Positions 10,758 through 29,598 are shown, numbered from the stretch's first letter. The stretch: 32,000 nt of DNA from Paracoccus suum (GCF_003324675.1 NZ_CP030918.1:1500001-1532000); one strand, 5' to 3'. A program made the numbers and translations. The notes: generated by a model not told the origin, from the letters alone.

Positions 10758-11242
10758 TGCATTGGAGCGCCGATGTCTGGTCGGCCGTCGCCAGTTGGAT
10801 CATGGCCGTTGCATCGGTCGGCGCCTGCGTCGTTGGCCTGTTCGGCCTCTGGACCTGGAAAAAGCAGGACATGTGGAAGGCCGACAAGGACCTTGCACGG
10901 CGCATGCTCTTGACCCTGTCGCATTACGAGAATGCCGTGCGCGCCGCCGTCAACATGCCGGCGACCGCGGACCCCTCGACCGACCGCCGCGCCGTTGCGC
11001 AGGCGAGGGCCGAGGTCCTGCCCCTGTCGCAGGAGGCCGAGGCGGTCTGGGGCAAGGACTTTCCTGCCGACCGACTGGCACAGGCGCTGCGCCTTGAGGG
11101 CGAGATTTTCGCCACAAGCGCTGATTCCCCCGACCACGCGTTAGGCGCGAGTCCCACACATTCCGGCATCCTCGACCTTCTGCACCGCGAGTTGCAGCAC
11201 ATAGAGGCGGTGCTGCGCGGCAAGTTGGGGACGCGCAGATGA
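10754..11242 (+). CDS. N-terminally membrane-anchored hypothetical protein (162 aa)
   Basis: The start overlaps the AAA+ stop (ATGA at 10754-10757). There is one TM helix (VWSAVASWIMAVASVGACVVGLFGLW) followed by a helical soluble part. Confidence 0.65.
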   Translation: MMHWSADVWSAVASWIMAVASVGACVVGLFGLWTWKKQDMWKADKDLARRMLLTLSHYENAVRAAVNMPATADPSTDRRAVAQARAEVLPLSQEAEAVWGKDFPADRLAQALRLEGEIFATSADSPDHALGASPTHSGILDLLHRELQHIEAVLRGKLGTRR

Positions 11243-12615: not shown

Positions 12616-12890
12616 AGTTCGTGCGCCTCGCTGCACTGGTCATCGCGCTGGAGGCGGTCCTCTACGTCGTCCTGTCGATCTATCTGCGCTCGCTGGAGCG
12701 AGAGCGGCTGGAGGAGGCATGGGATGAAGTCAACCCCGGCCGCGGCGGCGACAGCCCAGCCAGACAGGAATTTGTCGAGCGGCGGATGACGGCGTTTCAC
12801 AAGACCCTGCGCGCGCGGCTGGTAGTGCTGGCGGTGCTGCTGCCCATGGTGGCGATCTCGGTAATCGTCTACTTCGTGAACTATCGGTGA
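12612..12890 (+). CDS. Small two-TM membrane protein (92 aa)
   Basis: The ATG at 12612 overlaps the previous stop (ATGA). The product is MKFVRLAALVIALEAVLYVVLSIYL...RLVVLAVLLPMVAISVIVYFV. The track ORF start at 12561 would overlap the upstream gene by 55 nt and looks like an over-extension. Confidence 0.6.
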   Translation: MKFVRLAALVIALEAVLYVVLSIYLRSLERERLEEAWDEVNPGRGGDSPARQEFVERRMTAFHKTLRARLVVLAVLLPMVAISVIVYFVNYR

Positions 12891-12906
12891 TCAGAGGGGG
12901 CGCGCG

Positions 12907-13596
12907 ATGCGATATGCAGGTTGGGTGCTGAAGGGGCTGTTTGCCCTGTTGGTGTTCCTGTTTCTCGACTACTCGCTACCCAGTCGCGAGACTGTGCGGA
13001 TCACCAATACCTACAACAAGCTGACCGACCTCGGTGCCAACAGCATCTTTTATGCGGGCGCCGATACCGGCACGGTCGAGAACCAGCAGGGCCTGCGCGA
13101 CATCCGGTATATCGACACGATTAAGGCCAATGGCCGGCCGCGCGTCTATCGAAACGAGGATACCGGCTGGATCTGGCCGCCATATTTCAAATACGACAGC
13201 TCGAACCTGCAAGCGCGCGCGACGGACCTGAAATCGACTGCCGAAGCGCCCAAATGGGTCAGCGTGACTGCATATGGTTGGCGCGTCGGCTGGCTGACCA
13301 TCTTTCCAAACGCCATTTCGCTCAAGCCCGTGGCCGGGCCGGACGTGCGCCCGCTGAACTGGGCGGCGCTGGTGATCCTCGGGGTTCTGGGGCTGTTGCT
13401 GGTGCTGTTGTGGCGCATTTGGGCGCAGTTCCGCGAGCGGACGATCGACCCGGCGGTGCGCCGCGCAGACGAGACATGGGACCGGCTCGACGCCCGGGCC
13501 GACGCCGCACGGGATCGCCTCTCGTCCGAGGCGGGCGAGGCGCGGGGCCGTATCCGCGGCTGGCTGGACACCTGGCGCGGCAAGCCGCGCCGCTGA
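12907..13596 (+). CDS. DUF1523-family membrane protein
   Basis: 229 aa with an N-terminal TM helix (VLKGLFALLVFLFLDY) and the conserved core YRNEDTGWIWPPYFKYDSSNLQA, which I recognise from DUF1523 proteins. A second TM helix (WAALVILGVLGLLLVLLW) and a charged tail follow. GAGGGGG lies 7 nt upstream. Confidence 0.7.
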   Translation: MRYAGWVLKGLFALLVFLFLDYSLPSRETVRITNTYNKLTDLGANSIFYAGADTGTVENQQGLRDIRYIDTIKANGRPRVYRNEDTGWIWPPYFKYDSSNLQARATDLKSTAEAPKWVSVTAYGWRVGWLTIFPNAISLKPVAGPDVRPLNWAALVILGVLGLLLVLLWRIWAQFRERTIDPAVRRADETWDRLDARADAARDRLSSEAGEARGRIRGWLDTWRGKPRR

Positions 13597-17551: not shown

Positions 17552-18346
17552 TCAGTCCCCCGCCGCATCGTCCTTGTGCCAATAGCTGGTAACGTGGAAC
17601 CGGTCCTTAGGAAATTGCAATTCTGACAAATGGTTACGAAGGGTGGCGATGGCTTCGCGTTCGGCCCCGGCCCAGATGAAGCCGTCGCCTGCGGGCAGCG
17701 GCGTGGCCGACAACAATTGCGTCAACAGCCCGGCATCGGCGTGATCAGTGACGTGCCAGCGGATATCGGCGTCGCGCGGCGCGGCCAGCGGGATGATCGC
17801 GGCCTCGTCCTCGACCAGGATCAGGGCGCGCACAGCGGCATCCTGCGGCAGCATTTCCAGCCAGTTGGCGATTGCCGGCAGGGCGGTCTCGTCCCCGGCG
17901 AGCAGATACCAGTCCGCCGGCGAGATCAGTGCCGATTTCTTGGGTCCGGCGACGAACAGGTGCTGTCCGACCTGCGCCTGTGCCGCCCATGTGCCTGCAA
18001 TGCCGTGGCCGTGAAGCACAAACTCCAGCGCCAGCGTTCCTCCCGCCGGGTCGTGGCTGCGGGGCGTATACTCGCGCGAGACCGCGGGCGGGTCTTGCGG
18101 CCAATGCAGATGATCGCTGAGTTGGTCCGGCAACGACAGGATGCCGGTATCCGGGTCGGGAAAGAACAGCTTGACGTGATCGTCCGGCCCTAGGCTCTGC
18201 AGCGGCGGCTGCGGATGGCCCTGTCGCTCGAACGCACCCATCTGGGGGCCGCCAAGGGTCACGCGTCGCAGCCGGGGCGAGATATCCTCGACGTCCAGAA
18301 CCTCAAGTTCGCGCAGCGAGATGGGAAAGCGATGGGTCAGGCTCAT
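17552..18346 (-). CDS. Siderophore-interacting protein (SIP/ViuB-type FAD-binding reductase)
   Basis: Contains REYTPRS (the RxYT/S FAD motif), a ...LLAGDETALPAI... NAD(P)-side motif, and the C-terminal FIWAGAEREAIATLRNHL...SYW typical of SIP proteins. The ATG at 18346 (MSLTHRF) is preferred over the GTG at 18394. Confidence 0.75.
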   Translation of the reverse strand: MSLTHRFPISLRELEVLDVEDISPRLRRVTLGGPQMGAFERQGHPQPPLQSLGPDDHVKLFFPDPDTGILSLPDQLSDHLHWPQDPPAVSREYTPRSHDPAGGTLALEFVLHGHGIAGTWAAQAQVGQHLFVAGPKKSALISPADWYLLAGDETALPAIANWLEMLPQDAAVRALILVEDEAAIIPLAAPRDADIRWHVTDHADAGLLTQLLSATPLPAGDGFIWAGAEREAIATLRNHLSELQFPKDRFHVTSYWHKDDAAGD

Positions 18347-18506
18347 GGGGGCGACCTTTGCGGGGAATGGCGGGCAGATATCTGAGTAAAACACATAGGT
18401 ATGTCAAGGCGGCCCCAGCTTCGGTTGTCGACCCCCGCAACCTGACGTTGCGTTTCAGGATCGCTTGCGCGACGCGGATCACTCTCTCACAGGTTTGTTG
18501 GGCAGG

Positions 18507-18523
18507 CTTAAGGTCGGCTTAAG
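18507..18523 (+). promoter_or_regulatory. Tandem CTTAAG-N5-CTTAAG box (copy 1), a predicted response-regulator site upstream of dsbD
   Basis: GGCTTAAGGTC GGCTTAAGGTG GGCTT: an 11-bp periodic direct repeat (hexamers at 18507-12 and 18518-23, with a degenerate third unit). TAGCC follows 10 nt downstream (18534-38) and the dsbD ATG is at 18547. Confidence 0.6.
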
Positions 18524-18546
18524 GTGGCTTCCCTAGCCAAGCCGGC

Positions 18547-20451
18547 ATGATGACAAGATTTTTTTCCCTATCCTTCGCGACGCTGTCGCTGCTGATTGTG
18601 GTCCTTGCCGCAGGCTGGGCGGGCGCCCAGACGCACAAGCCACCACTGCAACCAGAGGACGCCTTTGCGCTGAGGGTCAGCCAGGACGCCGACGGCGCGC
18701 TGAACCTCAACTGGGATATCGCGGACGGCTATTACCTTTACCGCAGTGAGTTGAAGGCCGAGGCCGGCGACGGGCAGGAGCTGTCGCTGTCGCTGCCCGA
18801 GGGCGAGACCTATGCCGACCCCTATTTGGGCGAAGGGCAGATTTACCGCCAGAATGTCAGTGCAATGCTGGATCATCCGGTCGACGGAATGACCCTGCAT
18901 TGGCAGGGCTGCCAGCAGGACGGCATCTGCTACGCGCCGCAAAAGGTCAGTCTGGGTGCCGACGGCAGCGTCCTGCCGGTCGCGAATCGGACCCCCGCGC
19001 AGGACGATGGCGGCGTGTCTGCAGGGTCGGGTTGGACCCCGCAGACAGGCATGGTCGACCAAGCAGAGGCTGGCAAAGTTGATGTGGGGCAGGTAGATGC
19101 GGGGGCCGGTGGGGCGGAAACTGCGCGGCGGGGGACAGGCACCGGCGTGATCCTCGCGCAGGACCAGGGCCTCGTCCAAGGCCTCGCCGCGCGCGGCGGC
19201 GGTGCGCTGGTCATCCTTGGCTTCCTTGGCTTTGGCCTGCTGCTGGCTTTCACGCCCTGCGTCTTTCCGATGTTTCCCATCGTCGCCGGGATGCTGGCCG
19301 GGCAGGGCGAGGCCCTGACCGCGCGGCGTGGTCTGGTGCTGACCGGCGCTTACGTTCTGGCGATGGCGGCGGCCTTTGGCCTTTTGGGCATCGCCGCGGC
19401 CTGGTCCGGCGCGAACCTTCAGATGGTGCTGCAATCGCCGGCCGCCATCGCCGTGATCGCCGTGCTGTTCGTTCTTCTGGCGCTGTCGATGTTCGGATTT
19501 TACGAACTGCAGATGCCCGAGGCGCTGCAGCGCCGGCTCGGTCGGGTCGCGGGCAAGCGTGGCTCGCTGGGCGGGGCGGCGGTGCTTGGCTTTACCTCGG
19601 CGTTGATCATCGGGCCTTGCGTCACCGCGCCACTGGCGGGGGCGCTGCTTTATATCGCGCAGACCGGCGACGTGGCGCTCGGCGCGGCGGCGCTGTTCGC
19701 GCTGGGGCTGGGGCAGGGCGTGCCCCTGCTGGTCATCGGTCTCTTCGGGCCGCGGATACTGCCGCGCAGCGGCGCTTGGATGGAGGGCGCCAAGCAGGTG
19801 TTCGGCGTCATCTTCCTCGGCTTTGCCATCTGGCTGGCGAGCCGCGTGCTGCCGGGACCCGCGACACTGGCGCTGTGGGCGGCGTTGCTGGTCGGGACCG
19901 CGGTCTTCCTCGGTGCGCTCGACCGGCTCGACAGCGGCGCGACGCGCGGGCGGCGGCTGGCAGCAGTGCTGGGGGTGCTGCTGCTCTTTACGGGCGTGGT
20001 GCAGGGCCTTGGTGCCGCCCTCGGGGCCGTCGACCCGCTGCGGCCGCTGGCGCCCTTGGCGGGCCGCGCGGCGCCAGCAACGGCAGGGGCTGAAGCGCAG
20101 TTCGCGCACGTCACCACCGGCGCGGGCCTCGAACAGGCGCTGGCCTCGGGAAGCGGCAAGCCTGCGCTGGTCTATGTCACTGCCGACTGGTGCGTGACGT
20201 GCCGCGCCATCGAGCGCGGGCCGCTGGCGGATCCCGCAGTCACCGCGGCCCTCAGCGGCTTGGACGCGATCAAGGTCGATGTCAGCGATTTCAACGCCGA
20301 GGCGCAGATGCTGATGAAGGATCTGGCCGCGGCGGGCCCGCCGACCATGATCTTTCTGGACGCGGCCCGGGCCGAGGCCGCGGGCAGCCGGCTGATTGGC
20401 ATGGTCGACAGCGGCGCGATGCTGTCCTCGATCGGCAAAGTCGGGTCGTGA
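18547..20451 (+). CDS. dsbD: Thiol:disulfide interchange / membrane electron transporter, DsbD/ScsB family
   Basis: 634 aa with a signal peptide, an N-terminal periplasmic domain with HWQGCQQDGICYAP, a TM core with CVFPMFPI and GPCVTAPL, and a C-terminal thioredoxin fold with DWCVTCR. Confidence 0.9.
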   Translation: MMTRFFSLSFATLSLLIVVLAAGWAGAQTHKPPLQPEDAFALRVSQDADGALNLNWDIADGYYLYRSELKAEAGDGQELSLSLPEGETYADPYLGEGQIYRQNVSAMLDHPVDGMTLHWQGCQQDGICYAPQKVSLGADGSVLPVANRTPAQDDGGVSAGSGWTPQTGMVDQAEAGKVDVGQVDAGAGGAETARRGTGTGVILAQDQGLVQGLAARGGGALVILGFLGFGLLLAFTPCVFPMFPIVAGMLAGQGEALTARRGLVLTGAYVLAMAAAFGLLGIAAAWSGANLQMVLQSPAAIAVIAVLFVLLALSMFGFYELQMPEALQRRLGRVAGKRGSLGGAAVLGFTSALIIGPCVTAPLAGALLYIAQTGDVALGAAALFALGLGQGVPLLVIGLFGPRILPRSGAWMEGAKQVFGVIFLGFAIWLASRVLPGPATLALWAALLVGTAVFLGALDRLDSGATRGRRLAAVLGVLLLFTGVVQGLGAALGAVDPLRPLAPLAGRAAPATAGAEAQFAHVTTGAGLEQALASGSGKPALVYVTADWCVTCRAIERGPLADPAVTAALSGLDAIKVDVSDFNAEAQMLMKDLAAAGPPTMIFLDAARAEAAGSRLIGMVDSGAMLSSIGKVGS

Positions 20452-21266
20452 ATGCCGTCTCGATAGGACCGCTGGTGTTTGACGGCGCGCGGTTCGCGGC
20501 GATCTTCGCGCTGCTGCTGTTCTTTGCCGTGGCGGAAATCGTCGCCCGGGGCCAGCGGGGGCAGGTCCTGCGCGGCGATCCCGCGCGCTGGACCTGGCTG
20601 GCCGCCATCGCCTGGATCATGGGCGCTCGCATTGGCTTTGTCGCCATGAACTGGGCCGAGTTTTCCCCCCATCCTTGGGACAGCGTCAAGTTGTGGCAGG
20701 GCGGCTTTCTGCCGGCCGGTGGCTGGGCAGCCGGCCTCGCAGTGTTTCTGCTGGCGATGCTGCGCGATGTGCGCGGCGCGCTCGCGCCGCTGGCCCTGGG
20801 CAGCGCCGCGGCACTGGTCACGCATCTGGCGATCCCGGTCGCGTTTCCCATGACCAAACCTGATTTGCCTCCGATGCAACTGATGGCTCTGGACGGCGCC
20901 CCGGTCCAGTTGACCGGGCGCGAGCGGTCCGTGGTGCTGAACCTCTGGGCGAGTTGGTGCCCGCCATGCCGGCGCGAGATGCCGATGATGACCGACCTCG
21001 CCGCGCGAACGCCGGGGGTGGACTTCATCTTCGCCAATCAAGGCGAGGGCGCGGACCAGATTGACGCATTCCTGCGCGGCGAGGGGCTGCCGCCAGCCGG
21101 AATGGTCCGCGATCCGCAGAGCGGGCTGATGGCTGCGCTTGAGGCGATTGGCCTGCCCTCGACGCTGGTTTTCGACGCCGGTGGCCGGCTGATCGGAGCA
21201 CACACCGGCGAAATTTCACGAGCGGCCCTGGGCCGCATGATCGCTGACGCAGCACCGCGAAGATGA
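20448..21266 (+). CDS. Membrane-anchored TlpA/ScsD-like thioredoxin with an Lgt-like N-terminal TM region
   Basis: The GTG at 20448 overlaps the dsbD stop (GTGA). The N-terminal ~150 aa are hydrophobic and include KLWQGGFLPAGGW, reminiscent of the Lgt WxGG motif. The C-terminal thioredoxin domain carries LNLWASWCPPCRREMP. The track ORF start (20190) lies inside dsbD and is rejected. Confidence 0.75.
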   Translation: MNAVSIGPLVFDGARFAAIFALLLFFAVAEIVARGQRGQVLRGDPARWTWLAAIAWIMGARIGFVAMNWAEFSPHPWDSVKLWQGGFLPAGGWAAGLAVFLLAMLRDVRGALAPLALGSAAALVTHLAIPVAFPMTKPDLPPMQLMALDGAPVQLTGRERSVVLNLWASWCPPCRREMPMMTDLAARTPGVDFIFANQGEGADQIDAFLRGEGLPPAGMVRDPQSGLMAALEAIGLPSTLVFDAGGRLIGAHTGEISRAALGRMIADAAPRR

Positions 21267-21303
21267 GCCGGACCGGCGCTCTCGGCCAGACAGTAGAAAC
21301 GAG

Positions 21304-21945
21304 ATGAGCATAACCCGACGCGACATTCTGGCGGGCACCGTCGGCCTCGGTTTGGCCGGGATCGCCGGCGGGGCCTTCCTGCTCAGCATGGACCGGGGCG
21401 CGAGCAAGGCCGCCGCCCTCAGTGTCCAAGATGTCCTGCACGATCCCGACAATCCCGTCCTCGGAAACCCCAAGGGTGCGCTGACCATCGTCGAGTATTT
21501 CGACTACCAGTGCCCGTTCTGCAAACGCGGCCATTCGATGCTGACGCGCGTGGTCGACGAGGACGGCGATATCAGGCTGGTGATGAAGGACTGGCCGATC
21601 TTTGGCGCGCCCTCGGTTCGGGCCAGCCAACTGGTCCTCGGGGCATCCTCGACCGGGGAATATGAAAAGGCGCATTCGGCCCTCATGGCGACCGAGGCGA
21701 AACTGTCCGAGGGGCAGATCCGGCAGGTGCTACGCGATGGCGGTATCGACCCCGACGCCTCGCTGGCCGCCTATCGCGCGGATCGCGGAAAATGGGACGG
21801 CTTGCTGTCGCGCAATTCCGCCCAGGCGGGCGAGTTGGGTCTGCAAGGCACGCCGGCCTTCATCGTCGGCGCCAAGATCTATCCCGGTGCGCTGGACGAG
21901 ACCGGACTGCGGGCGATCATCGCCGATGCCCGCGCCGCCGCCTGA
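21304..21945 (+). CDS. Periplasmic DsbA-family thiol oxidoreductase (ScsC-like), Tat-type signal
   Basis: 213 aa with MSITRRDILAGTVGLGLAG (twin-arginine motif) and the active site FDYQCPFCKRGH. Confidence 0.85.
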   Translation: MSITRRDILAGTVGLGLAGIAGGAFLLSMDRGASKAAALSVQDVLHDPDNPVLGNPKGALTIVEYFDYQCPFCKRGHSMLTRVVDEDGDIRLVMKDWPIFGAPSVRASQLVLGASSTGEYEKAHSALMATEAKLSEGQIRQVLRDGGIDPDASLAAYRADRGKWDGLLSRNSAQAGELGLQGTPAFIVGAKIYPGALDETGLRAIIADARAAA

Positions 21946-21948
21946 GGT

Positions 21949-21965
21949 CTTAAGGCTGCCTTAAG
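21949..21965 (+). promoter_or_regulatory. Tandem CTTAAG-N5-CTTAAG box (copy 2), upstream of the second DsbA-like gene
   Basis: TCTTAAGGCTGCCTTAAGCC, with hexamers at 21949-54 and 21960-65. TAGCC follows exactly 10 nt downstream (21976-80), the same offset as copy 1. Confidence 0.55.
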
Positions 21966-22106
21966 CCGGCGCCCGTAGCCGTTTCGGGAAACGAGGCGAC
22001 CGACCAGCCGGGCCGCGCCTGCGCCCGCAGGTTGGCATCAGCCGAAAACACGTCAGGGCGGGGCAAGCCCCGCAAGCCCCACGCCATGAACCATGAAGGA
22101 AAAAAC

Positions 22107-22733
22107 ATGCATCGTCGAAATCTTGTTCTCGCGGGCGCCAGCCTGCTTGTGCTGCCGACCGTCGCCCTGCCCGCCGCTGCCGCTGCGGCCAGCAATCCGA
22201 TGCCGGCCGCCCTGCGCAAGGCGCTGGAGCGCGACCCGACCGCCCCGGTACTGGGCAATCCCAATGGCGATGTCACCCTGACCGAGTTCTTTGACTACAA
22301 CTGCCCGTTCTGCCGCAAGATGGTCGGGCCGATGCACAGCCTGATCGTCGAGGACAAGAACCTGCGCGTCGTGTTGCGCGAATGGCCGGTGTTCGGCGAG
22401 GATTCGGAATTCGCGGCGCGCGCCTCGCTGGCCTCGCTGCAGCAGGGCAAATACTGGCAATATCACACCGCGCTGTTCCGCACGAAGGGCCGCGTGACCG
22501 AGAAGGCCACGATGCAGGTGGCGCGCGACATCGGCCTCGATATCGCGCGCCTGGAGCGCGACATGGACAGCGAGCAGGTCGAGCGGCACATCACCTCAAG
22601 CCACATGCTCGGAGAGCACATGGGCCTTGTCGGCACGCCCAGCTTCATCGCAGGCGACGAGGGCGCCTTCGGGCAATACAGCCTCGACGAGTTGCGCGGC
22701 ATGGTGAAACGCGCCCGCGCGACCTTGGCCTGA
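22107..22733 (+). CDS. Second periplasmic DsbA-family thiol oxidoreductase
   Basis: The ATG at 22107 is preceded by GAAGGA (22095-22100). The product starts MHRRNLVLAGASLLVLPTVALPAAAAAA (signal) and has the active site FDYNCPFCRKM. The track start at 22032 is a TTG with no SD. Confidence 0.8.
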   Translation: MHRRNLVLAGASLLVLPTVALPAAAAAASNPMPAALRKALERDPTAPVLGNPNGDVTLTEFFDYNCPFCRKMVGPMHSLIVEDKNLRVVLREWPVFGEDSEFAARASLASLQQGKYWQYHTALFRTKGRVTEKATMQVARDIGLDIARLERDMDSEQVERHITSSHMLGEHMGLVGTPSFIAGDEGAFGQYSLDELRGMVKRARATLA

Positions 22734-22742
22734 AATATCAGT

Positions 22743-22769
22743 CCGGCGGCGTCAGAACCGCGCCGCCGC
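22743..22769. terminator. GC-rich hairpin between convergent genes (possible bidirectional terminator)
   Basis: CGGCGGCG (22744-51) pairs with CGCCGCCG (22761-68) around a 9-nt loop. There is no clear U tract on either side. Confidence 0.3.
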
Positions 22770-22790
22770 GCAGATAGAGCCTTAGCCAGC

Positions 22791-24149
22791 CTAACCGGCG
22801 GGCAGGATCACATCGGCCTGCTCGCCGCCGCCTTGACGCGGCGACAGGCGCAACTCGCCGCCCATCGCCTGCACGGCGGCCGCCACTATCGAGAGGCCAA
22901 GCCCGCTGCCCCCGCCCGACGCGCTCGCCGCGCCGCGATAGAAGCGCTCGGTGACATGCGGGCGATCCGCCTCGGCGATGCCGGTCCCCCGGTCCAGCAC
23001 GCTGAAGCGCACCGCGTCGCCATCCTGGACAAGCCGCGCCTGCACCACCGCACCACGGGGCGAGGCGAGGATCGCGTTCTCGAGCAGATTGCGAAGCGCG
23101 GGCGCCAGCAGCGCCGCCTGCGTGGTGCGCCATTTCGCTTGACCGGTTTTCAGCCGCAACTCGACGCCGCGCGATTTCGCCAGCCCGGCCAGTTGGCCAG
23201 CCACGTCGGCAAGTACGCTCGCGCCGTCTTGCGCGGGGGCCTGTGCACTGTCGATGGTGTTCTCGGCCGCCGTCATGTCCAGCAGCTGGCGCACCATGCG
23301 GTCGGTGCGATCGACAGCCAGCGTGATCTGCGTCAGCGCCCGCTCGCGCGTCGCGGCATCGGGCGCAAGAGCGGCGATCTGGGCCTGCGTCTTCAGCCCG
23401 GCAAGCGGGGTCTTCAACTCGTGGGCGGCAAAGGCGGTGAAGCTGCGCTCGCGCTCGCGTAGCCCCTCGACGCGGCGGAAAAGGCCGTTCAGCGCCTCGG
23501 TCATCGGTCGCAGTTCGGCCGGACCGCGGGTCTGCGTCAGCGGGCTGAGGTCGGTCGCCGGACGGCGCGACAGCGCATGGGCGAGGCGGTCCAGCGGCTC
23601 CAGCCCGTGGCGCACGGCCAGCCAGATCATCCCCGCCAGCAGCGGCAGGATCAGGATCGCTGGCGCCAGCAGGCCGATGGCAACGCCCCGCACCAGCCTC
23701 TCGCGCACGCTGAGGGCGTCGCCGACCATGACGCGGACCCCCAGATCCTCATCGACATGGGTATAGACCCGCCACACCTCACCATCGATGGTGTTTTCGC
23801 TGAAGCCGGCCTGCGCCGACAATTGCCCCGAGGGCGCGCCGGCGGATTCGCTCTTCAGCTGGCCGTCAAAGCCCCAGACCTGACAGATCAGCTGGCGCGC
23901 GACGTCGTGCCGCCCAGTCTGTGACAGGGCCGGGACCTCGTCCACCAGCCGCGCGGCGTCGGGGCCGGCGATGCCGCCGTTGCGCTGGATCAGCGAAGCG
24001 ACCATCTGCGCCGATTCCTGCAAGCGCCGGTCCAGCACATGGCCGACCTCGCTGCGGGTGGAATGCTGGATCCAGGCGACGGCCGACAGCCAGATTGCCC
24101 CGGTGGCAAGCAGCAGGATGACAAACAGGCGCCCGCGGATCGACGTCAT
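22791..24149 (-). CDS. Sensor histidine kinase, QseC/PmrB-like
   Basis: 452 aa with two TM helices flanking a ~130-aa periplasmic domain, a HAMP region, the H-box FTAFAAHELKTPLAGL, the N-box LLENAILAS, and the G-boxes DRGTGI and GSGLGLSIV. The start overlaps the regulator stop (ATGA at 24146-24149). Confidence 0.9.
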   Translation of the reverse strand: MTSIRGRLFVILLLATGAIWLSAVAWIQHSTRSEVGHVLDRRLQESAQMVASLIQRNGGIAGPDAARLVDEVPALSQTGRHDVARQLICQVWGFDGQLKSESAGAPSGQLSAQAGFSENTIDGEVWRVYTHVDEDLGVRVMVGDALSVRERLVRGVAIGLLAPAILILPLLAGMIWLAVRHGLEPLDRLAHALSRRPATDLSPLTQTRGPAELRPMTEALNGLFRRVEGLRERERSFTAFAAHELKTPLAGLKTQAQIAALAPDAATRERALTQITLAVDRTDRMVRQLLDMTAAENTIDSAQAPAQDGASVLADVAGQLAGLAKSRGVELRLKTGQAKWRTTQAALLAPALRNLLENAILASPRGAVVQARLVQDGDAVRFSVLDRGTGIAEADRPHVTERFYRGAASASGGGSGLGLSIVAAAVQAMGGELRLSPRQGGGEQADVILPAG

Positions 24150-24823
24150 GGCGAGCCACCGTCGGCCGGGTTCAGCAGGCGGTAGCCCGCGCCGCGAACG
24201 GTCTGGATGAAGTCGCGGCCCAGCTTCGCGCGCAATTTGTGAACGTGAACCTCGACCGTGTTGCTCTCGACATCCTCCTGCCAGCCGTAAAGCCGCTCTT
24301 CCAGCTGCGCCTTGGACAGGATGCGGCCGGGATGTTCGGCCAGGGCGTGCAGGACGCTGAATTCCCGGCGCGAAAAGCTCAACTCACGCCCGCCGATGCG
24401 ACCGTTCTGCGTGGCGGGATCGAGGCTGAGGCCGTTCCATTCGATCACTGCCGTCGCCCGCCCCTCCTGACGGCGCAACATGGCGCGGATGCGGGCGGCA
24501 AGCTCGGTCAAATCGAACGGCTTGCCGAGGTAGTCATCCGCCCCCGCGTCGAGGCCCGAGACACGGTCGCGCACCTCGTCGCGGGCGGTCAACAGCAGGA
24601 CGGGAATCCGCGATCCCGCCGCGCGGAGTTCGTTCAGCAGATCGAGGCCCGAGCCGTCCGGGAGCATGACGTCCAGCACGACCCCGGCAAAGCCGCCCCC
24701 GAGGAGTGCCGCGCGCGCATCAGCCAGCGTTCCGGCGGTATCGGCGGTAAAGCCCGACAGGCGCAGCCCGACGCTCAATCCGTCCAGCAGCAGCGGGTCG
24801 TCCTCGATAATCAGCAAGCGCAT
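24146..24823 (-). CDS. OmpR-family response regulator, QseB/PmrA(BasR)-like
   Basis: 225 aa: MRLLIIEDDPLL...VLDVMLPDGSG...LTARD...KPF, with the winged-helix end NTVEVHVHKLRAKLGRDFIQTVRGAGYRL. This closely resembles BasR/QseB (NTLEVHIHNLRDKVG..IRTVRGFGYML). AGGAAA lies 7-8 nt upstream. Confidence 0.9.
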   Translation of the reverse strand: MRLLIIEDDPLLLDGLSVGLRLSGFTADTAGTLADARAALLGGGFAGVVLDVMLPDGSGLDLLNELRAAGSRIPVLLLTARDEVRDRVSGLDAGADDYLGKPFDLTELAARIRAMLRRQEGRATAVIEWNGLSLDPATQNGRIGGRELSFSRREFSVLHALAEHPGRILSKAQLEERLYGWQEDVESNTVEVHVHKLRAKLGRDFIQTVRGAGYRLLNPADGGSP

Positions 24824-24868
24824 GGGATGATTTCCTTGCCCGAGATGATCACAGTCTCGCCGCCCATG

Positions 24869-24885
24869 CTTAAGCGGGGCTTAAG
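24869..24885. promoter_or_regulatory. Tandem CTTAAG-N5-CTTAAG box (copy 3), in the divergent regulator/oxidase intergenic region
   Basis: GCTTAAGCGGGGCTTAAGC, with hexamers at 24869-74 and 24880-85. It lies 46 nt upstream of the response-regulator ATG (minus strand). On the plus strand it is followed by TAGCT at the same +10 offset (24896-900) and by a copy of the dsbD 5' end. Confidence 0.55.
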
Positions 24886-25028
24886 CTCGCGTCTCTAGCT
24901 GGTCGGGCGTGATGACAAGATTGTTCCGCCGCTGCTGCGTCGTTTTGTCGGTGGCGAAGGCCCGTGGCCCTCGGTAAACGCCTGATCCCGAGATTGTCCG
25001 AGGGGGCGGCTCGGGACGCAGGCCGGAC

Positions 25029-25045
25029 CTTAAGGCTCGCTTAAG
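25029..25045 (+). promoter_or_regulatory. Tandem CTTAAG-N5-CTTAAG box (copy 4), upstream of the oxidase operon
   Basis: CCTTAAGGCTCGCTTAAGG, with hexamers at 25029-34 and 25040-45. GATAAG follows 10 nt downstream (25056-61) as a -10-like element. It lies about 100 nt upstream of the ccoN-like start. Confidence 0.55.
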
Positions 25046-25147
25046 GTTTGCCGCCGATAAGCCGGCCGCTCGAGATTCGCGTGAATCCGGGCGGGCCGTT
25101 TCCGACCCGCCATGGCTCCGCCGGGACGCACAGAAGGACCGTCCGCA

Positions 25148-26698
25148 ATGTTGATTACCATGGGCCTGCTTCTGGCCCTCAGCTTCGTTGTTTCGCTGCT
25201 TGCCCTGACCTTCCTGATCTGGGCGATCGCGACGCGGCAGTTCGCGCTGGACCGCGCCCAGGCCAAGACGGTCTTCGGCAAGGAGGCAGCCGAGCCCGAT
25301 ACGGACGGCACGCATCTGTTCGACACCACCGGGATCGACCGCGTCTCGGCCCGGCCAGTGCGGCTACTGATCCTGGGCGCGATCTTCTGGCTGCTGCTGG
25401 CATCAGCCTTCGGAGTGATCGCCTCGCTCAAGCTGCACTGGCCGGACTGGCTGAACCAGGCCGCGCCCCTGACCTTTGGCCGGATGCGCGCGCTGCACCT
25501 GAACCTCGTGACCTACGGCTGGCTGTCGCAGATCGGCATCGCCTGCATGTACTGGATCCTGCCGCGCATCTTCCGCACCCAACTGCGCTCGCCACAACTG
25601 GCGGTGATCGGCTTCTGGCTGTGGAACATCGGCGTCACGCTGGGCGCCGTGACCTTCGCCTGGGGTTGGACCGATGGCGAGGAATGGCTGGAGTTCGCCT
25701 GGCAGTTTGACATGCTGCTGGTCCTCGCCGGGGTATTTTTCGTCGTGCCGCTGGTACGCACGGCGCGGGCGCGCGAGGTCGACCATATCTACGTCACCGG
25801 CTGGTATTTCCTGGCCGCAATGGTCTGGTTCCCCTGCCTTTTCTTCATCGCCAACTTCCCGGGCATTCACTACGGGGTCGAGGAGGCGACCGTGAACTGG
25901 TGGTTTGCCCACAACGTCCTCGGCCTCTGGCTGACGCCGCTGGGGGTCGGGACGGCCTATTATTTCATCCCCAAGATCATCGGCAAACCGATCTATTCCT
26001 ATTCACTGTCGTTGATCGGCTTCTGGGGGCTCGCGCTCTTTTACAGTCAGGTTGGCATCCACCACCTGATCGGCGGTCCGTTGCCGACCTGGGTGGTCAC
26101 GCTCTCGATCGTGCACTCGATGATGATGTTCATCCCGGTCATCGCGGTGGCGATCAACCAGCATGTGACGGTGGCGCGCAACACCTGGGCACTGCGGGAA
26201 TCGCTGCCGCTGCGCTTCATCGCCTTCGGAGCGGTGATGTACACGCTGGCTTCGTTCCAGGGCTCGATCGAGGCGCTGCGCTCGGTCAACACGATCACGC
26301 ACTTCACCCATTACACCGTCGGCCATGCCCATCTGGGGGCCTATGCCTTTGTCTCGATCGTCATGTTCGGCGCGGCCTACCACATCATGCCGCGCATGGT
26401 GGGGCGCGAGTTCGCCTATCCCGGCCTGATCCGCCTGCACTTCTGGTTGGTGGTGCTCGGCTTTGCGATCTACTTCTTCGCGCTGACCATCGGCGGCGTG
26501 CTGCAGGGCCTCGCGATGCTTGATGCGACCCGCAGTTTTGCGGAAAGCGTGATGGTAACGAAGCCGTATCTGGAAGCGCGGTCGGTCGGCGGCACGATGA
26601 TGGCGCTGGGCCATGTCGTCTTTGCCGCCAACATCATCGGCATCCTGCGCGCCCCGCGCCGTGCCCTCCAACCCCAAAGCAGCGTGCCGGCAGAATGA
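25148..26698 (+). CDS. ccoN: cbb3-type (C-family) heme-copper oxidase subunit I with an N-terminal CcoS/FixS-like fusion
   Basis: The ATG at 25148 has GAAGGA 9 nt upstream. The first ~50 aa, MLITMGLLLALSFVVSLLALTFLIWAIATRQFALDRAQ, resemble CcoS (..FxWAxxSGQFDD..). The rest carries CcoN hallmarks: RALHLN, NWWFAHNVLGLWLTP..YYFIPK, FYSQVGIHH (Tyr six residues before the HH CuB ligands) and HYTVGHAHLG. Confidence 0.85.
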   Translation: MLITMGLLLALSFVVSLLALTFLIWAIATRQFALDRAQAKTVFGKEAAEPDTDGTHLFDTTGIDRVSARPVRLLILGAIFWLLLASAFGVIASLKLHWPDWLNQAAPLTFGRMRALHLNLVTYGWLSQIGIACMYWILPRIFRTQLRSPQLAVIGFWLWNIGVTLGAVTFAWGWTDGEEWLEFAWQFDMLLVLAGVFFVVPLVRTARAREVDHIYVTGWYFLAAMVWFPCLFFIANFPGIHYGVEEATVNWWFAHNVLGLWLTPLGVGTAYYFIPKIIGKPIYSYSLSLIGFWGLALFYSQVGIHHLIGGPLPTWVVTLSIVHSMMMFIPVIAVAINQHVTVARNTWALRESLPLRFIAFGAVMYTLASFQGSIEALRSVNTITHFTHYTVGHAHLGAYAFVSIVMFGAAYHIMPRMVGREFAYPGLIRLHFWLVVLGFAIYFFALTIGGVLQGLAMLDATRSFAESVMVTKPYLEARSVGGTMMALGHVVFAANIIGILRAPRRALQPQSSVPAE

Positions 26699-27318
26699 AC
26701 CGCTATCTTCCCCTCGTGCTGATCTCGCTCGGGATCCTCGCATTTGCGACCCTGTTTCTGGTGATCGCGCCGGGCATCCAGATTGCCCAGCGCGCAGTCT
26801 CTGAAGGGCTGCGCCCCTATACCGAACAGGAGGCGCGCGGCCGCGCGCAATATGTCAGTCTTGGCTGCGTCTACTGCCACAGCCAGCAGCCCCGCTCGCC
26901 CGACCAGGCCCCGGACGGAGAACGCGGCTGGGGCCGTCCTGCCGTCGCGGGAGATTATGTCTTCGACCGTCCGCACCAGCTGGGGACGATGCGCACCGGC
27001 CCGGACCTGCTGAACGTCGGCGCGCGCCTGCCCTCGGCAAGCTGGCAGCTGACGCATCTCTATCAGCCCCGTGCAATCTTTCCGTGGTCGATCATGCCGG
27101 CCTATCCGTATCTGTTCGAGAAAAAGGCAAAGGCAGCCGAAGGCGACACCGTTGTTGTTCTGCCCAACGGCGTCGGCCCGGCGGATGGCGGCGTCATTGT
27201 CGCCCGTCCCGAGGCGCTGGATCTGGCTGCTTACCTGCTGTCGCTCGACCGGACCTATCCGGTGCCCGCAAACTCGCTCCGGGACGACGGTTTCGCCCGC
27301 CGGGGAGCAAGCTCATGA
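26695..27318 (+). CDS. ccoO: cbb3-type oxidase monoheme subunit II (CcoO/FixO-like)
   Basis: The start overlaps the ccoN stop (ATGA). There is an N-terminal TM anchor, then GRAQYVSLGCVYCHSQQPR (CxxCH), GTMRTGPDLLNVG and WSIMPAYPYLF, matching the CcoO pattern. Confidence 0.85.
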   Translation: MNRYLPLVLISLGILAFATLFLVIAPGIQIAQRAVSEGLRPYTEQEARGRAQYVSLGCVYCHSQQPRSPDQAPDGERGWGRPAVAGDYVFDRPHQLGTMRTGPDLLNVGARLPSASWQLTHLYQPRAIFPWSIMPAYPYLFEKKAKAAEGDTVVVLPNGVGPADGGVIVARPEALDLAAYLLSLDRTYPVPANSLRDDGFARRGASS

Positions 27319-28562
27319 ACCGGCCCGACAAGCAGCCCGTCAAATCCCGGCTTGCCGACGAGGGCTACGAGCCGTGGGAGAACAACAGGCGCATCCCGCT
27401 GCCGGTGATCTGGGTCGCCGTGGCGCTGGCCGTCTGGGGTACGGCAACGCTGCTTCGCGATAGCGGCAGCTACGCGGTCGCCCAGAACGAGCGCCAATCC
27501 GGCGAGACTGTGGCCGCCGAGGCGCCGGAGGGCGGCGAGGCGCTGTTCCTCGCCCGCTGCTCGACCTGTCACCAGCCCAACGGCGCCGGCGTCCGGCTGG
27601 CTGTTCCCCCCCTGCACGGGTCTGACTTTGCAAAGGCAGGCCCGGAGGTCGTCGCCCAGATCATGCTGCGCGGCATCGACGGCCCCATTCGGGTCTCGGG
27701 CTTTGCGTATGACGGGCGCATGCCAAGCTTTGCCGCGGCGCTGAACGATGGTGATATCGCGCAGATCGCATCTTTCGTTGCCAACCGCTTTGGCGGGACC
27801 GGGGCCGCGCTCGAGGCCGGGCAGGTGGCCACCCTGCGTGCCGCGCAGGCGAACAAGGGCAGCTGGCAAGGCGGCGCCGAACTGGCCGCGCTGGTCCCCG
27901 ATCTACCCACGCAGCCACCGATGCCGGCAGAGGCAAAGCCTGCGACCGATCCTGCCATCTCGGCCCTGGTCTTTGCCGGCAAGAGCGATGCCTGGTCCTG
28001 CGCCAGCTGTCACGGCGATCTGGGGCAGGGGACCGAGAACACGCCGCGCCTCGCCGGTCTCGCGCAGGGCTACATCGCCCGCCAGCTGCGCGATTTCCGC
28101 CAAGGCGAGCGCCATAACGAAAGCATGAATTCGGTCGCAAAAGCCCTGAACGATCATGAGATCCACGGGCTGGCCGCCTATTACGCCCGCCAGCGGGTCG
28201 CCTCTGCCGCGCAGCCCGCGCTTGGCGGCGATCTGGCGCGGGGCGAGCAGATCGCGCTGCAGGGCGATTGGAGCATCGGCGTTCCGGCCTGTTTCAGCTG
28301 CCATGGCCCGTCGGGCTTTGGCGTGGCACCCGATTTCCCGGCGCTGGCGGCGCAGCAGCCAGCCTACATCGCCAGCCAGCTCGCTGCCTGGGCGGGCGGT
28401 CATCGCAACAACTCGCCGCTTGGTCTGATGGACCGGATTTCCGAGGCGTTGCCCGAGGCTGACCGTCGCGCCGTGGCCGACTACCTCGCCTCGCTGCCGG
28501 CAGTTCCGGCGCCCGAACAGCGGGCCGAGGCAAAGATTGATGGGGGTAAGGATGAGCTCTGA
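27315..28562 (+). CDS. Membrane-anchored triheme cytochrome c: a CcoP-like monoheme domain plus a c4/TsdB-like diheme domain
   Basis: The ATG at 27315 overlaps the ccoO stop (ATGA); the track start at 27084 lies inside ccoO. There is a TM helix (IPLPVIWVAVALAVWGTATLL) and three CxxCH motifs: CSTCH, CASCH and CFSCH. The last two domains have the repeated ...PRLAGLAQGYIARQLRDFRQGER... / ...PALAAQQPAYIASQLAAWAGGHR... pattern of c4-type diheme cytochromes. Confidence 0.8.
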   Translation: MNRPDKQPVKSRLADEGYEPWENNRRIPLPVIWVAVALAVWGTATLLRDSGSYAVAQNERQSGETVAAEAPEGGEALFLARCSTCHQPNGAGVRLAVPPLHGSDFAKAGPEVVAQIMLRGIDGPIRVSGFAYDGRMPSFAAALNDGDIAQIASFVANRFGGTGAALEAGQVATLRAAQANKGSWQGGAELAALVPDLPTQPPMPAEAKPATDPAISALVFAGKSDAWSCASCHGDLGQGTENTPRLAGLAQGYIARQLRDFRQGERHNESMNSVAKALNDHEIHGLAAYYARQRVASAAQPALGGDLARGEQIALQGDWSIGVPACFSCHGPSGFGVAPDFPALAAQQPAYIASQLAAWAGGHRNNSPLGLMDRISEALPEADRRAVADYLASLPAVPAPEQRAEAKIDGGKDEL

Positions 28563-29598
28563 AAAACACGAGGACCCGGGCCAGGGCCGCAGCGTGAAGC
28601 GGCTGATCTATTCTGTCGGCGGGGGACTTGTTCTGGTGGCCATCGGCGCCCTGGCGCTCGAGTCGGATCTGCTGCCGACATGGATCAGCGGCCGCACGAC
28701 GGAGGCGCCGGCCGCCCAAAGCGCCTTCTTTCAGCCCCCCTCCGAGGATGAACTGCCTGAAGGCCCCTTTGGCGAGGCCGTCAAGCGTGGTCGCGATATC
28801 TTCATGAACACGTCCACCAATGCCGGGGAATACGTCGGCAACGGGCTGTCCTGCTCGAACTGCCACCTCGACGGCGGCCGCCAGCCGATGGCAGCGCCAA
28901 TGTGGGCGGCCTGGACGCGCTATCCGATGTATCGAAAGAAGAACAACCAGATCAATACGATGGAAGATCGGGTGATGGGTTGCTTCAGCTATTCGATGAA
29001 CGCCCAGCATTCGGTCTCGGGTGGCCCGCCGCCGCATGGCAGCGACATCTACCGCGATCTGGACAGCTATTTCTACTGGCTCGCCACCGGCGCGCCGACC
29101 AACGTCCCGATGGAGGGCAACGGCTTTGGCAAGGTCGCCAAGACCGAGGCCGGCTATTCCTCCGACCGCGGGGCCCAGGTCTTCTCGGCCAACTGCGCAG
29201 TCTGCCACGGCGAGGACGGGCAGGGCCAGACCGATGCCAACGGCCGGATCGTGTTCCCACCGCTGTGGGGACCGAACAGCTATAACTGGGGCGCGGGCAT
29301 GGCCAAGATCGACACCGCCGCCGCTTTCGTGCAGCACAACATGCCGCTCTCCCAGCCGGGCAAGTTGTCCGACCAGGAGGCCTGGGACGTCGCCGCATAT
29401 ATCGACAGTCACGAGCGGCCCAAGGATCCCCGCCAGGGCAAGGGCACGGTCGAGGAGAACCGCAAGAAGTCCCATGACGGCGACGCGACCTATTACGGCC
29501 AGGTGCTTAATGGCACCCTGATCGGCGTCGGCACGCCCGACCCGGCGCGGCCGGTGGGCGCGCCCGATGCCCCGGCCGGGGTCACGCCGCCGGAATGA
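28552..29598 (+). CDS. tsdA: TsdA-family diheme cytochrome c (thiosulfate dehydrogenase / tetrathionate reductase-like), membrane anchored
   Basis: Heme motifs are CSNCH and CAVCH. A conserved Cys lies in RVMGCFSYSMN, the position of the His/Cys-ligating Cys in TsdA. FPPLWGPNSYNWGAGMAKIDTAAAFVQHNMPLSQPGKLSDQEAWDVAAYI closely parallels Allochromatium TsdA (FPPLWGPRSFNTGAGM...FIKHKMPLG..LSDEEAWDVAGFV) as I recall it. There is an N-terminal TM segment (LIYSVGGGLVLVAIGALAL). Alternative starts exist at 28537 (TTG) and 28540 (ATG). Confidence 0.7.
   Translation: MSSEKHEDPGQGRSVKRLIYSVGGGLVLVAIGALALESDLLPTWISGRTTEAPAAQSAFFQPPSEDELPEGPFGEAVKRGRDIFMNTSTNAGEYVGNGLSCSNCHLDGGRQPMAAPMWAAWTRYPMYRKKNNQINTMEDRVMGCFSYSMNAQHSVSGGPPPHGSDIYRDLDSYFYWLATGAPTNVPMEGNGFGKVAKTEAGYSSDRGAQVFSANCAVCHGEDGQGQTDANGRIVFPPLWGPNSYNWGAGMAKIDTAAAFVQHNMPLSQPGKLSDQEAWDVAAYIDSHERPKDPRQGKGTVEENRKKSHDGDATYYGQVLNGTLIGVGTPDPARPVGAPDAPAGVTPPE

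Follow-up and report, generated by a model that had tools for sequence, protein, structure and literature searches.

Predicted control of Dsb genes and a cbb3-like oxidase/tsdA operon by a DsbRS-type two-component system in Paracoccus suum

A stretch of 32,000 nucleotides from Paracoccus suum (GCF_003324675.1, NZ_CP030918.1:1500001-1532000), hereafter called the window, contains four copies of the tandem repeat CTTAAG-N5-CTTAAG (the box), which are probably binding sites for the phosphorylated response regulator (24146-24823) of a DsbRS-type two-component system controlling both a set of Dsb genes and an operon for a cbb3-like oxidase and the thiosulfate dehydrogenase TsdA. Comparative genomics gives strong support to the predicted binding by the regulator and to the co-regulation of the two gene groups. 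That such a two-component system is linked through the box to Dsb genes is not new, as the pair matches the published DsbRS system. Extension of the DsbRS regulon to the TsdA/cbb3-like oxidase operon and to L,D-transpeptidase (LDT) genes, in three proteobacterial classes, appears to be undescribed in the literature searched. A first-pass annotation of the window had called the combination of thiol-reducing genes and a dedicated oxidase undescribed; that description has to be divided, as the Dsb half is published in the form of DsbRS and only the oxidase/tsdA extension appears to be new.

Four paired boxes in the window

A pattern search of the window located exact CTTAAG-N5-CTTAAG pairs, without strand assignment, at 18507-18523 (box 1, CTTAAGgtcggCTTAAG), 21949-21965 (box 2, CTTAAGgctgcCTTAAG), 24869-24885 (box 3, CTTAAGcggggCTTAAG), and 25029-25045 (box 4, CTTAAGgctcgCTTAAG). 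All four have the form cTTAAg-N5-cTTAAg, which is equivalent to TTAA-N7-TTAA. CTTAAG occurs eight times in the window and all eight copies belong to the four N5-spaced pairs, whereas dinucleotide-preserving shuffles of the window (65-70% GC) gave an expectation of 1.29 single hexamers and 0.00 pairs. No further box was found in the 32 kb with two or fewer mismatches, with the relaxed pattern YTTAAK, or with TTAA-N7-TTAA and one mismatch. The first-pass annotation had listed the same four pairs with 11-bp spacing and none elsewhere, and had placed all of them between genes, 5' of dsbD, the second dsbA-like gene, the response regulator gene and the oxidase operon; the relaxed scans and the gene mapping are in agreement with both statements.

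Box 1 occupies the predicted promoter of the dsbD operon and ends 23 nt 5' of the dsbD ATG (18547), and an orthologous box lies between dsbR and dsbD in P. versutus, P. aminovorans, Paracoccus sp. TOH, and P. indicus. Box 2, in a putative internal promoter for the second dsbA-like gene, begins 4 nt past the stop codon of the first dsbA-like gene and lies 141 nt ahead of the conserved start of the second (22107). It is lineage-specific among the Paracoccus loci compared, the equivalent spacer in other Paracoccus species being free of a box, and comparable internal boxes are present in P. indicus (L005:5921; locus and position within it, here and below) and Camelimonas (L007:9172). Box 3, the presumed ancestral divergent dsbR/dsbD promoter and autoregulation site, is 45 nt from the ATG of the response regulator gene, which is on the opposite strand. 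Box 4, in the predicted promoter of the oxidase/tsdA operon, ends 66 nt 5' of the ccoN-like ATG (25112). Conservation is confined to the 17-bp core; spacers and flanks vary among the four copies and across genera, and the flanks of boxes 2 and 4 have no similarity to those of boxes 1 and 3.

The same boxes in related genomes

The window DNA is approximately 80% identical to replicons of P. versutus, P. aminovorans, and Paracoccus sp. TOH, and the genes on the replicons of the first two species were mapped by tblastn and Pfam. Genome scans with the regulator recovered orthologues with 59-74% identity in P. indicus, Pseudooceanicola, Camelimonas, Bosea, Methylorubrum, and two metagenome-assembled genomes (MAGs). 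An exact box was present 45-70 bp 5' of the regulator start in every orthologue with 59-86% identity (nine alphaproteobacterial loci), mostly in the intergenic region common to a divergent operon (dsbD, tlpA-like, L,D-transpeptidase, dsbA-like). In a control set of 72 loci around non-orthologous regulators (1.24 Mb, 63% GC), only four exact boxes were detected, all of them approximately 440 bp 5' of related regulators.

Thirteen loci (the window included) with ccoN-like, ccoO-like, cytochrome c, and tsdA genes, and usually a Cu-type ATPase gene, were checked for TTAA-N7-TTAA upstream of the operon. Such a box was found 5' of the first gene in 12 of the 13, which belong to alpha-, beta-, and gammaproteobacteria, and in the relatives listed here it lies within about 300 bp of that gene. 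These boxes are box 4 of the window and those of P. versutus (L001:12573), P. aminovorans (L003:12859), P. indicus (L005:13473), Azospirillum thiophilum (L087:9872), S. maltophilia (L085:9841), B. hinzii (L086:9861), Halomonas korlensis (L088:9786), Alcaligenes (L090:9855), Oxalobacteraceae (L092:8682 and 8693), a Pelagibacterium-like contig (L093:9925), and Sphingomonas (L089:7000, where the box precedes a soxB-like gene, a porin gene, and the ccoN-like gene). The chance expectation, determined by shuffling L090-L093 only, was at most 0.1 box per 21-kb locus. A DsbRS-type pair adjoins the oxidase operon in eight loci, and in Halomonas the oxidase/tsdA, dsbRS, and dsbD + tlpA-like + dsbC/G-like modules are all contiguous. 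The earlier proposal that one type of box joins the Dsb genes to the oxidase operon is supported by the presence of the same boxes 5' of both in relatives.

Additional boxes were located 5' of L,D-transpeptidase genes in five loci (L001:2606, L003:2202, L005:5921, L010:9867, and L093:21041), 5' of a second gene pair for a cytochrome c and a TsdA-like protein (L001:3416 and L003:3011), 5' of DsrE-like genes and a substrate-binding protein gene in Methylorubrum (L009:1631), and 5' of a tlpA-like gene (L092:18687). Co-occurrence of the box and the regulator gene extends to more than 15 genomes in three proteobacterial classes. The dsbR/ccoN intergenic region of the Oxalobacteraceae locus (L092, 8682-8709) has three consecutive half-sites with 11-bp spacing (ATTAAG, GTTAAC, and CTTAAT), an arrangement that may reflect binding by two or more dimers or in a sliding register.

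Identity of the two-component system

The response regulator (24146-24823, minus strand) is a member of the OmpR/PhoB family with a PmrA-like recognition helix, SNTVEVHVHKLRAK, and its gene overlaps that of a HisKA sensor histidine kinase (22791-24149, minus strand) by 4 nt in an arrangement typical of an operon. The regulator aligns without gaps to Klebsiella pneumoniae PmrA, the best match among solved structures (41% identity), and the base-contacting residues K153, T187, N188, H193, and H195 of PmrA correspond to R153, S187, N188, H193, and H195. The recognition helix signature SNxxEVHxH is kept in all regulator orthologues. Retention of these contacts, together with the boxes near the starts of the orthologous genes, supports the earlier prediction that the boxes are sites of the adjacent OmpR-family regulator.

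The first-pass annotation had described the pair as QseBC/PmrAB-like, a label that the curated models do not sustain. The best NCBIfam matches of the regulator were PmrA (NF007928, 223.7 against a cut-off of 330) and QseB (NF007663, 207 against 345), and the kinase was scored against PmrB (NF008025, 150.4 against 314) and QseC (NF007664, 218.1 against 475), all four values being below threshold. No ExxE motif is present in the periplasmic domain of the kinase, and Pfam and NCBIfam searches of the window revealed no arn, ept, or other lipid A modification genes. Membership in PmrAB/QseBC was rejected on these three grounds, and by sequence the regulator is placed within the PmrA/QseB clade but outside both curated families.

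The published system used for comparison is DsbRS of Pseudomonas aeruginosa (PA2479/PA2480), which is divergent from dsbDEG, controls that operon, and is autoregulated (Yu et al., bioRxiv 10.1101/2020.08.17.255257). According to that study, DsbR protects TAA-N7-TTAAT in footprints, and ChIP-seq gave the motif TTAA-N7-TTAA; Cys82 mediates the binding of copper by the sensor domain of DsbS, and copper inhibits the phosphatase activity; Cys82 and His235 are conserved among the DsbS homologues examined; and cognate dsbRS-dsb pairs with the motif are widespread. Induction required 0.5-2 mM Cu, Ni also bound the sensor domain, and the DsbRS mutant was copper-sensitive (Yu et al.).

A diagnostic feature of the window kinase, passed over in the first-pass annotation, is Cys89, its sole cysteine, which is located in the periplasmic domain 154 residues from the phospho-acceptor His243 (153 in P. 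aeruginosa DsbS). The sensor Cys was present in 15 of 15 kinases from Dsb/LDT or oxidase loci recovered by a kinase scan (30-83% identity) and also in the Alcaligenes and Oxalobacteraceae kinases, both read directly, and each of the ten outgroup kinases aligned over this position has A, F, T, Y, or a gap there instead. In the S. maltophilia homologue the two residues are exactly Cys82 and His235. The residue four positions past the phospho-acceptor His is Thr in the window kinase and Ser239 in P. aeruginosa DsbS. Divergence of the pair from a dsbD-first operon was observed in P. versutus, P. aminovorans, Paracoccus sp. TOH, P. indicus, Methylorubrum, and an alphaproteobacterial MAG, and in Camelimonas and Bosea a dsbA-like gene is first in the divergent operon; in the window itself the pair diverges only from a 22-codon dsbD stub. 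In the features compared, namely the motif, the ancestral dsbD-divergent arrangement, and the single periplasmic Cys, the window pair fits the DsbRS family of P. aeruginosa.

On plasmid p3 of Paracoccus sp. TOH (L002, 1-5700), a second two-component system adjoins dsbRS; its regulator is 47% identical and its kinase has no sensor Cys. This system is divergent from an operon encoding an ArnT-like GT39 protein, a GT2 protein, and an epimerase; its promoter has no CTTAAG-type box with two or fewer mismatches, and it looks like a genuine PmrAB-like lipid A modification system.

Promoter geometry

Candidate -10 elements on the plus strand begin 10 nt past each box: TAGCCA (18534-18539, 7 nt before the dsbD ATG), TAGCCG (21976-21981), TAGCTG (24896-24901), and GATAAG (25056-25061). 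The positions of the TAGCC, TAGCC, TAGCT, and GATAAG strings given in the first-pass annotation were correct, and its proposal of a fixed box-to--10 geometry was retained. When 21 boxes were oriented toward their target genes, position +12 after the second CTTAAG-type hexamer was an A in 18 of the 21 target-side sites, and position +2 was a T in 17 of 21. Position +12 is the second base of the candidate -10 hexamer that begins 10 nt past the box. A -10 element at fixed distance, with the box in place of the -35 region, is supported by this conserved A. The TAGC string is restricted to orthologous or paralogous dsbD-type promoters of Paracoccus, so part of its occurrence in three of the four copies is attributable to common descent. 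GATA after box 4 is kept in P. versutus and P. aminovorans, and the equivalent slot in Azospirillum is AAAATG, overlapping a -10-like GAAAAT that begins one base earlier. For BqsR, which uses a repeat of the same type, experiments placed the repeat over the -35 region of activated promoters.

A consensus scan of 18300-25200 gave no sigma-70 consensus promoters and terminators only at chance level; the former result fits activator-dependent promoters and is otherwise uninformative. Folding of the leader RNA between box 3 and ccoN gave z = -2.2 and no convincing terminator or riboswitch-like structure. In Paracoccus, the 23 nt between box and dsbD ATG contain no Shine-Dalgarno sequence, and this spacing therefore implies, for the predicted promoter, a leaderless or near-leaderless dsbD mRNA.

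A relocated promoter at box 3

Alignment indicated that the segment at ~24851-24925 is orthologous to the dsbR/dsbD divergent intergenic region of other Paracoccus, the match reaching into dsbD over its first five codons (ATGATGACxAGA). A second copy of these roughly 75 bp lies 5' of the intact dsbD, where ~18489-18563 matches ~24851-24925. An open reading frame (ORF) of 22 codons, VMTRLFRRCCVVLSVAKARGPR, is located downstream of box 3 (24909-24977, plus strand) and its first five codons copy the dsbD start. From the segment shared by the two sites, it follows that dsbRS and a promoter copy were moved between the second dsbA-like gene and ccoN, leaving the stub, which is probably a relic of that relocation. 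The first-pass annotation did not recognize box 3 as a relocated dsbR/dsbD promoter copy with a dsbD stub. Transcription from box 3 toward the plus strand, should it occur, would include the stub ahead of box 4 and ccoN, and the stub might then be translated as well. The stub ORF has two adjacent cysteines (RRCC).

The gene divergent from box 1 (17552-18394, minus strand) encodes a SIP-like (siderophore-interacting-protein-like) FAD reductase with its start 112 nt from the box, and holds, after the rearrangement, the slot that dsbR has in relatives.

Dsb genes

Gene content was assigned by Pfam and NCBIfam searches refined with alignments. The dsbD gene (18547-20451, plus strand) encodes a canonical protein-disulfide reductase with DsbD_N, DsbD_TM, and thioredoxin domains and a CVTC motif at residue 549, and passes NF001419 (478.9, cut-off 330). 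It is followed by a gene for a membrane-anchored TlpA/DsbE-like redoxin with a CPPC motif (20448-21266, plus strand), the GTG start of which overlaps the dsbD stop; the same architecture of an LGT-like transmembrane region and a redoxin domain is found in the Halomonas, Camelimonas, Oxalobacteraceae, and Pelagibacterium-like loci. Two genes for DsbA-fold thioredoxins with CPFC motifs complete the set. The first (21304-21945, plus strand) has an RR-containing signal peptide and occupies the functional slot of DsbG, and the second (22107-22733, plus strand) starts at a conserved GAAGGA-ATG rather than at the upstream TTG (22032). The N-termini of both proteins have paired arginines (TRRDIL and HRRNLV) resembling twin-arginine signal peptides, which would be unusual for thiol-disulfide oxidoreductases.

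The name Scs, applied to these genes in the first-pass annotation, was not borne out and was rejected as a label, as the reductase has all three domains and scores above the cut-off of the canonical DsbD model. For the reductase and the thioredoxin-fold proteins, NCBIfam gave no match to a family named after an Scs protein; a candidate ORF for ScsA was not sought.

The oxidase/tsdA operon

The first gene (25112-26698, plus strand) encodes a divergent subunit I of the cbb3-type (C-family) oxidases, assigned by Pfam, NCBIfam, and alignment to P. stutzeri CcoN, with which all heme and CuB histidines and the cross-link tyrosine align. Subunit II (26695-27318, plus strand) is a monoheme CcoO/FixO-like protein, also identified by Pfam and NCBIfam. 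Scores were below the TIGRFAM cut-offs for both CcoN (282.5 against 583) and CcoO (107.5 against 200), and the ccoN-like gene was read as belonging to a divergent subfamily of the C family, one found widely among alpha-, beta-, and gammaproteobacteria. A ccoQ gene is absent from the operon, and in place of CcoP the operon encodes a membrane-anchored triheme cytochrome c (27315-28562, plus strand; three CxxCH motifs), the gene for which is in a TsdB/CcoP-like position and has an ATG that overlaps the ccoO stop.

The next gene (28537-29598, plus strand), overlooked in the first-pass annotation, encodes a TsdA-type diheme thiosulfate dehydrogenase. Its product matches the Marichromatium TsdBA fusion structure 5LO9 (E = 3e-89) and the A. 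vinosum TsdA structures 4WQC (E = 4e-51, residues 68-296) and 4WQ7 (2.8e-50). The heme-ligand Cys is kept (GCFSYS), RIGDCF being aligned with RVMGCF, and the sequence support for the TsdA assignment is strong; the protein agrees with the TsdA layout of a SoxA-like N-terminal domain, two hemes, and Cys ligation of the active-site heme. The last gene of the operon (29595-31766, plus strand) encodes a Cu-type heavy-metal P1B ATPase with an HMA domain, and a Cu-type ATPase gene is in the same position in S. maltophilia, B. hinzii, Halomonas, Sphingomonas, Spiribacter, and Oxalobacteraceae.

Several genes related to sulfur metabolism were noted beside the oxidase/tsdA operon in relatives. These encode a rhodanese, a PDO-like beta-lactamase-fold protein, a BLH-Pyr_redox fusion, DsrE, and an ArsR-type regulator in S. 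maltophilia (L085, 3518-9475), SoxYZ and FCSD in Alcaligenes (L090, 1998-7014), and SoxB-like and SorA-like proteins in Sphingomonas (L089, 5675-9991 and 17918-20139).

Comparison with known systems

The window system resembles DsbRS-dsbDEG in its pairing of an OmpR-family regulator with a HisKA kinase, in the ancestral divergence of their genes from an operon that begins with dsbD and also encodes a DsbE/TlpA-like protein and a protein in the DsbG slot, and in its autoregulation site, its TTAA-N7-TTAA direct repeat, and its single periplasmic Cys at near-equal distance from the phospho-acceptor His. It differs in that the pair has moved off dsbD, leaving a promoter copy and a dsbD stub; in that the isomerase slot is filled by two DsbA-fold CPFC proteins instead of DsbG, with an extra internal box; and in that the box is also located 5' of the cbb3-like oxidase/TsdA/Cu-ATPase operon and, in relatives, of L,D-transpeptidase genes.

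PmrA/BasR (Salmonella, Klebsiella) and QseB are the closest characterised regulators by sequence and structure and bind as head-to-tail dimers. The box is nearly identical to that of PmrA (CTTAAG-N5-xTTAAT in Salmonella), and the His193, His195, and Asn188 contacts are kept; unlike PmrA and QseB, the window regulator scores below the equivalog thresholds, its sensor has a Cys as the distinctive feature in place of ExxE, and no lipid A modification targets are associated with it. BqsRS/CarRS of P. aeruginosa likewise is autoregulated and uses a TTAAG-N6-TTAAG repeat over the -35 region of activated promoters, but BqsS senses Fe(II) through RExxE and the BqsRS regulon consists of polyamine and cation-stress genes. 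HprSR-msrPQ and CpxRA-scsABCD (E. coli, Salmonella) are two-component systems inducing periplasmic repair or reducing systems under oxidant or copper stress; their boxes and sensors are unrelated to those of the window, and ScsB differs from canonical DsbD. Neither the HprSR nor the CpxRA regulon is known to include a respiratory operon. The light/c-di-GMP pathway of Erythrobacter and the sHdrR/SoxR repressors of Hyphomicrobium were set aside as unrelated systems.

As in the TsdBA loci of A. vinosum, Marichromatium, Halomonas, and Paracoccus thiocyanatus, a multi-heme cytochrome c precedes TsdA as electron acceptor, and donation from TsdB to cbb3 oxidases has been proposed in the literature. 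The window differs from these loci in that tsdA shares its operon with a dedicated, divergent ccoN/ccoO pair and a gene for a Cu-type ATPase. Within the literature searched, the only prior hint of the arrangement was a remark on gene order in Halomonas titanicae, where a qseB-like regulator and kinase, tsdB, tsdA, and dsbG were listed in that order, the regulator was called QseB, and a role in quorum sensing was guessed; unlike the present account, that paper draws no motif and no link to DsbRS.

Proposed mechanism

By analogy with P. aeruginosa, the kinase would sense periplasmic copper or thiol-reactive stress through Cys89; sensing would lower its phosphatase activity, and phosphorylated regulator would accumulate. 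As the geometry suggests, transcription would then be activated by a regulator dimer bound head-to-tail across the -35 region, some 10 nt separating the end of the box from a weak -10 element. The predicted targets are dsbD, the tlpA-like gene, and the first dsbA-like gene for box 1 (from a probably leaderless mRNA); the second dsbA-like gene for box 2; the dsbRS operon itself for box 3, read toward the minus strand; and the genes for the ccoN-like and ccoO-like proteins, the triheme cytochrome c, TsdA, and the Cu-type ATPase for box 4, possibly reinforced by box 3 read toward the plus strand. One envelope signal would in this way turn on both a disulfide-reducing, cysteine-protecting periplasmic module and a thiosulfate-oxidising chain ending in its own cbb3-like oxidase.

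Two rationales may be offered for such a combination. The products of the co-induced operon carry six c-type hemes and a CuB centre, which the Dsb module could help to mature, and it could also mend copper-damaged disulfides. Alternatively, it could shield enzymes with a single cysteine, L,D-transpeptidases among them, against copper or against the tetrathionate that TsdA produces. Protection of L,D-transpeptidases against sulfenylation is a function of DsbG, and tetrathionate is a classical thiol-blocking reagent. At a more speculative level, and with low confidence, DsbS-type kinases might be general sensors of periplasmic cysteine-modifying chemistry, with copper as one trigger. The ancestral task of DsbRS might then have been a "produce and protect" circuit, in which a self-contained thiosulfate-to-tetrathionate branch (TsdA, a multi-heme cytochrome c, and a private cbb3-like oxidase with a Cu-ATPase) was coupled to DsbD-driven reductants and spare L,D-transpeptidases shielding the cysteine enzymes of the envelope.

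Evidence against the proposal and alternative explanations

Several points weigh against control of both gene groups by a DsbRS-type system. The text of the DsbRS paper names no cytochrome, oxidase, thiosulfate, or transpeptidase, and the link to the oxidase is for that reason drawn from comparative genomics. Literature searches for PA2481 and PA2482, probable cytochrome c genes downstream of dsbS in P. aeruginosa, gave no result. The match to DsbRS is one of motif, gene arrangement, and sensor Cys rather than of aligned sequences. The oxidase operon of Spiribacter (L091) has neither a box nor a two-component system nearby. As PmrA, QseB, and BqsR recognise near-identical repeats, cross-talk with another regulator is possible. 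Finally, copper as the inducer of a thiosulfate-oxidising oxidase is left without explanation.

In one alternative reading, regulator, boxes, and regulon are the same and the signal is a thiol-reactive sulfur or oxidant species, such as tetrathionate made by TsdA, that modifies the sensor Cys, the Dsb and LDT genes protecting cysteine enzymes from the product of the co-induced pathway. TsdA is encoded within the regulated operon, LDTs are catalytic-Cys enzymes with boxed genes in five loci, and sulfur-oxidation genes adjoin the loci or are themselves boxed (Methylorubrum; Sphingomonas, including DsrE; S. maltophilia; Alcaligenes). Paracoccus thiocyanatus TsdA makes tetrathionate, which is a thiol blocker, and the TsdA cluster of Erythrobacter is induced by thiosulfate; a sulfur species rather than copper is therefore conceivable as the native signal, given these neighbours and a tetrathionate-forming TsdA. 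The millimolar copper needed in P. aeruginosa and the binding of Ni point in the same direction. Set against this are the Cys82-dependent binding of Cu to DsbS and the copper-sensitive mutant, both of which are experimental, and the Cu-type ATPase in the operon, and a sulfur or oxidant signal is regarded as rather unlikely.

A true PmrAB/QseBC orthologue, sensing Fe3+, acid pH, or catecholamines and with its classical box recruited to new targets, would account for the best NCBIfam and structural matches and for the similarity to the Salmonella PmrA box. It is nevertheless very improbable, considering the scores far under the equivalog cut-offs (223.7/330, 207/345, and 218/475), the 41% identity to PmrA, the lack of ExxE in the periplasmic domain and of lipid A targets in the window, and the presence of the DsbS-specific Cys, which is absent from outgroup kinases including the Paracoccus sp. 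TOH kinase beside the ArnT-like operon. Hardly credible is a further reading in which the boxes are repeated or mobile sequences spread by duplication, or are bound by a regulator encoded elsewhere, and adjacency to the two-component system is a coincidence. Boxes 1 and 3 do lie in a duplicated segment of about 75 bp, the hexamer is palindromic, and several regulator families use this repeat; but conservation limited to the 17-bp core, the unrelated flanks of boxes 2 and 4, and the co-occurrence with the regulator gene described above argue for sites of the DsbRS-type regulator.

Significance

DsbRS is known to date from Pseudomonas, and solely as a circuit that acts on Dsb genes in copper resistance. 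Should the oxidase, the thiosulfate dehydrogenase, and L,D-transpeptidases prove to be regular members of its regulon, then envelope thiol homeostasis, sulfur oxidation, and cell-wall cross-linking would be under one sensor, and a regulon of that width would place copper as the native signal in question. The terminal acceptor and the regulation of TsdA are poorly defined in heterotrophs, and the window provides a concrete candidate for both. For genome annotation, regulators labelled "QseB" or "PmrA" beside tsdA or dsbD in alpha-, beta-, and gammaproteobacteria would be named DsbR more accurately.

Other observations

A box-free part of the window (8823-13596), upstream of the Dsb genes, has a series of genes of which little is characterised, encoding an AAA ATPase, a 162-aa ORF product without a Pfam match, DUF6638 and DUF1523 proteins, and then a DeoC-like aldolase and a long aldehyde dehydrogenase. 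In the Pelagibacterium-like locus (L093, 1-3743), type IV secretion genes (VirB8, CagX, and TrbI) adjoin a locus with four boxes, Dsb genes, the oxidase/tsdA operon, and an LDT gene. The Paracoccus copies of the regulon are located on plasmids or chromids, and the whole regulon may travel horizontally.

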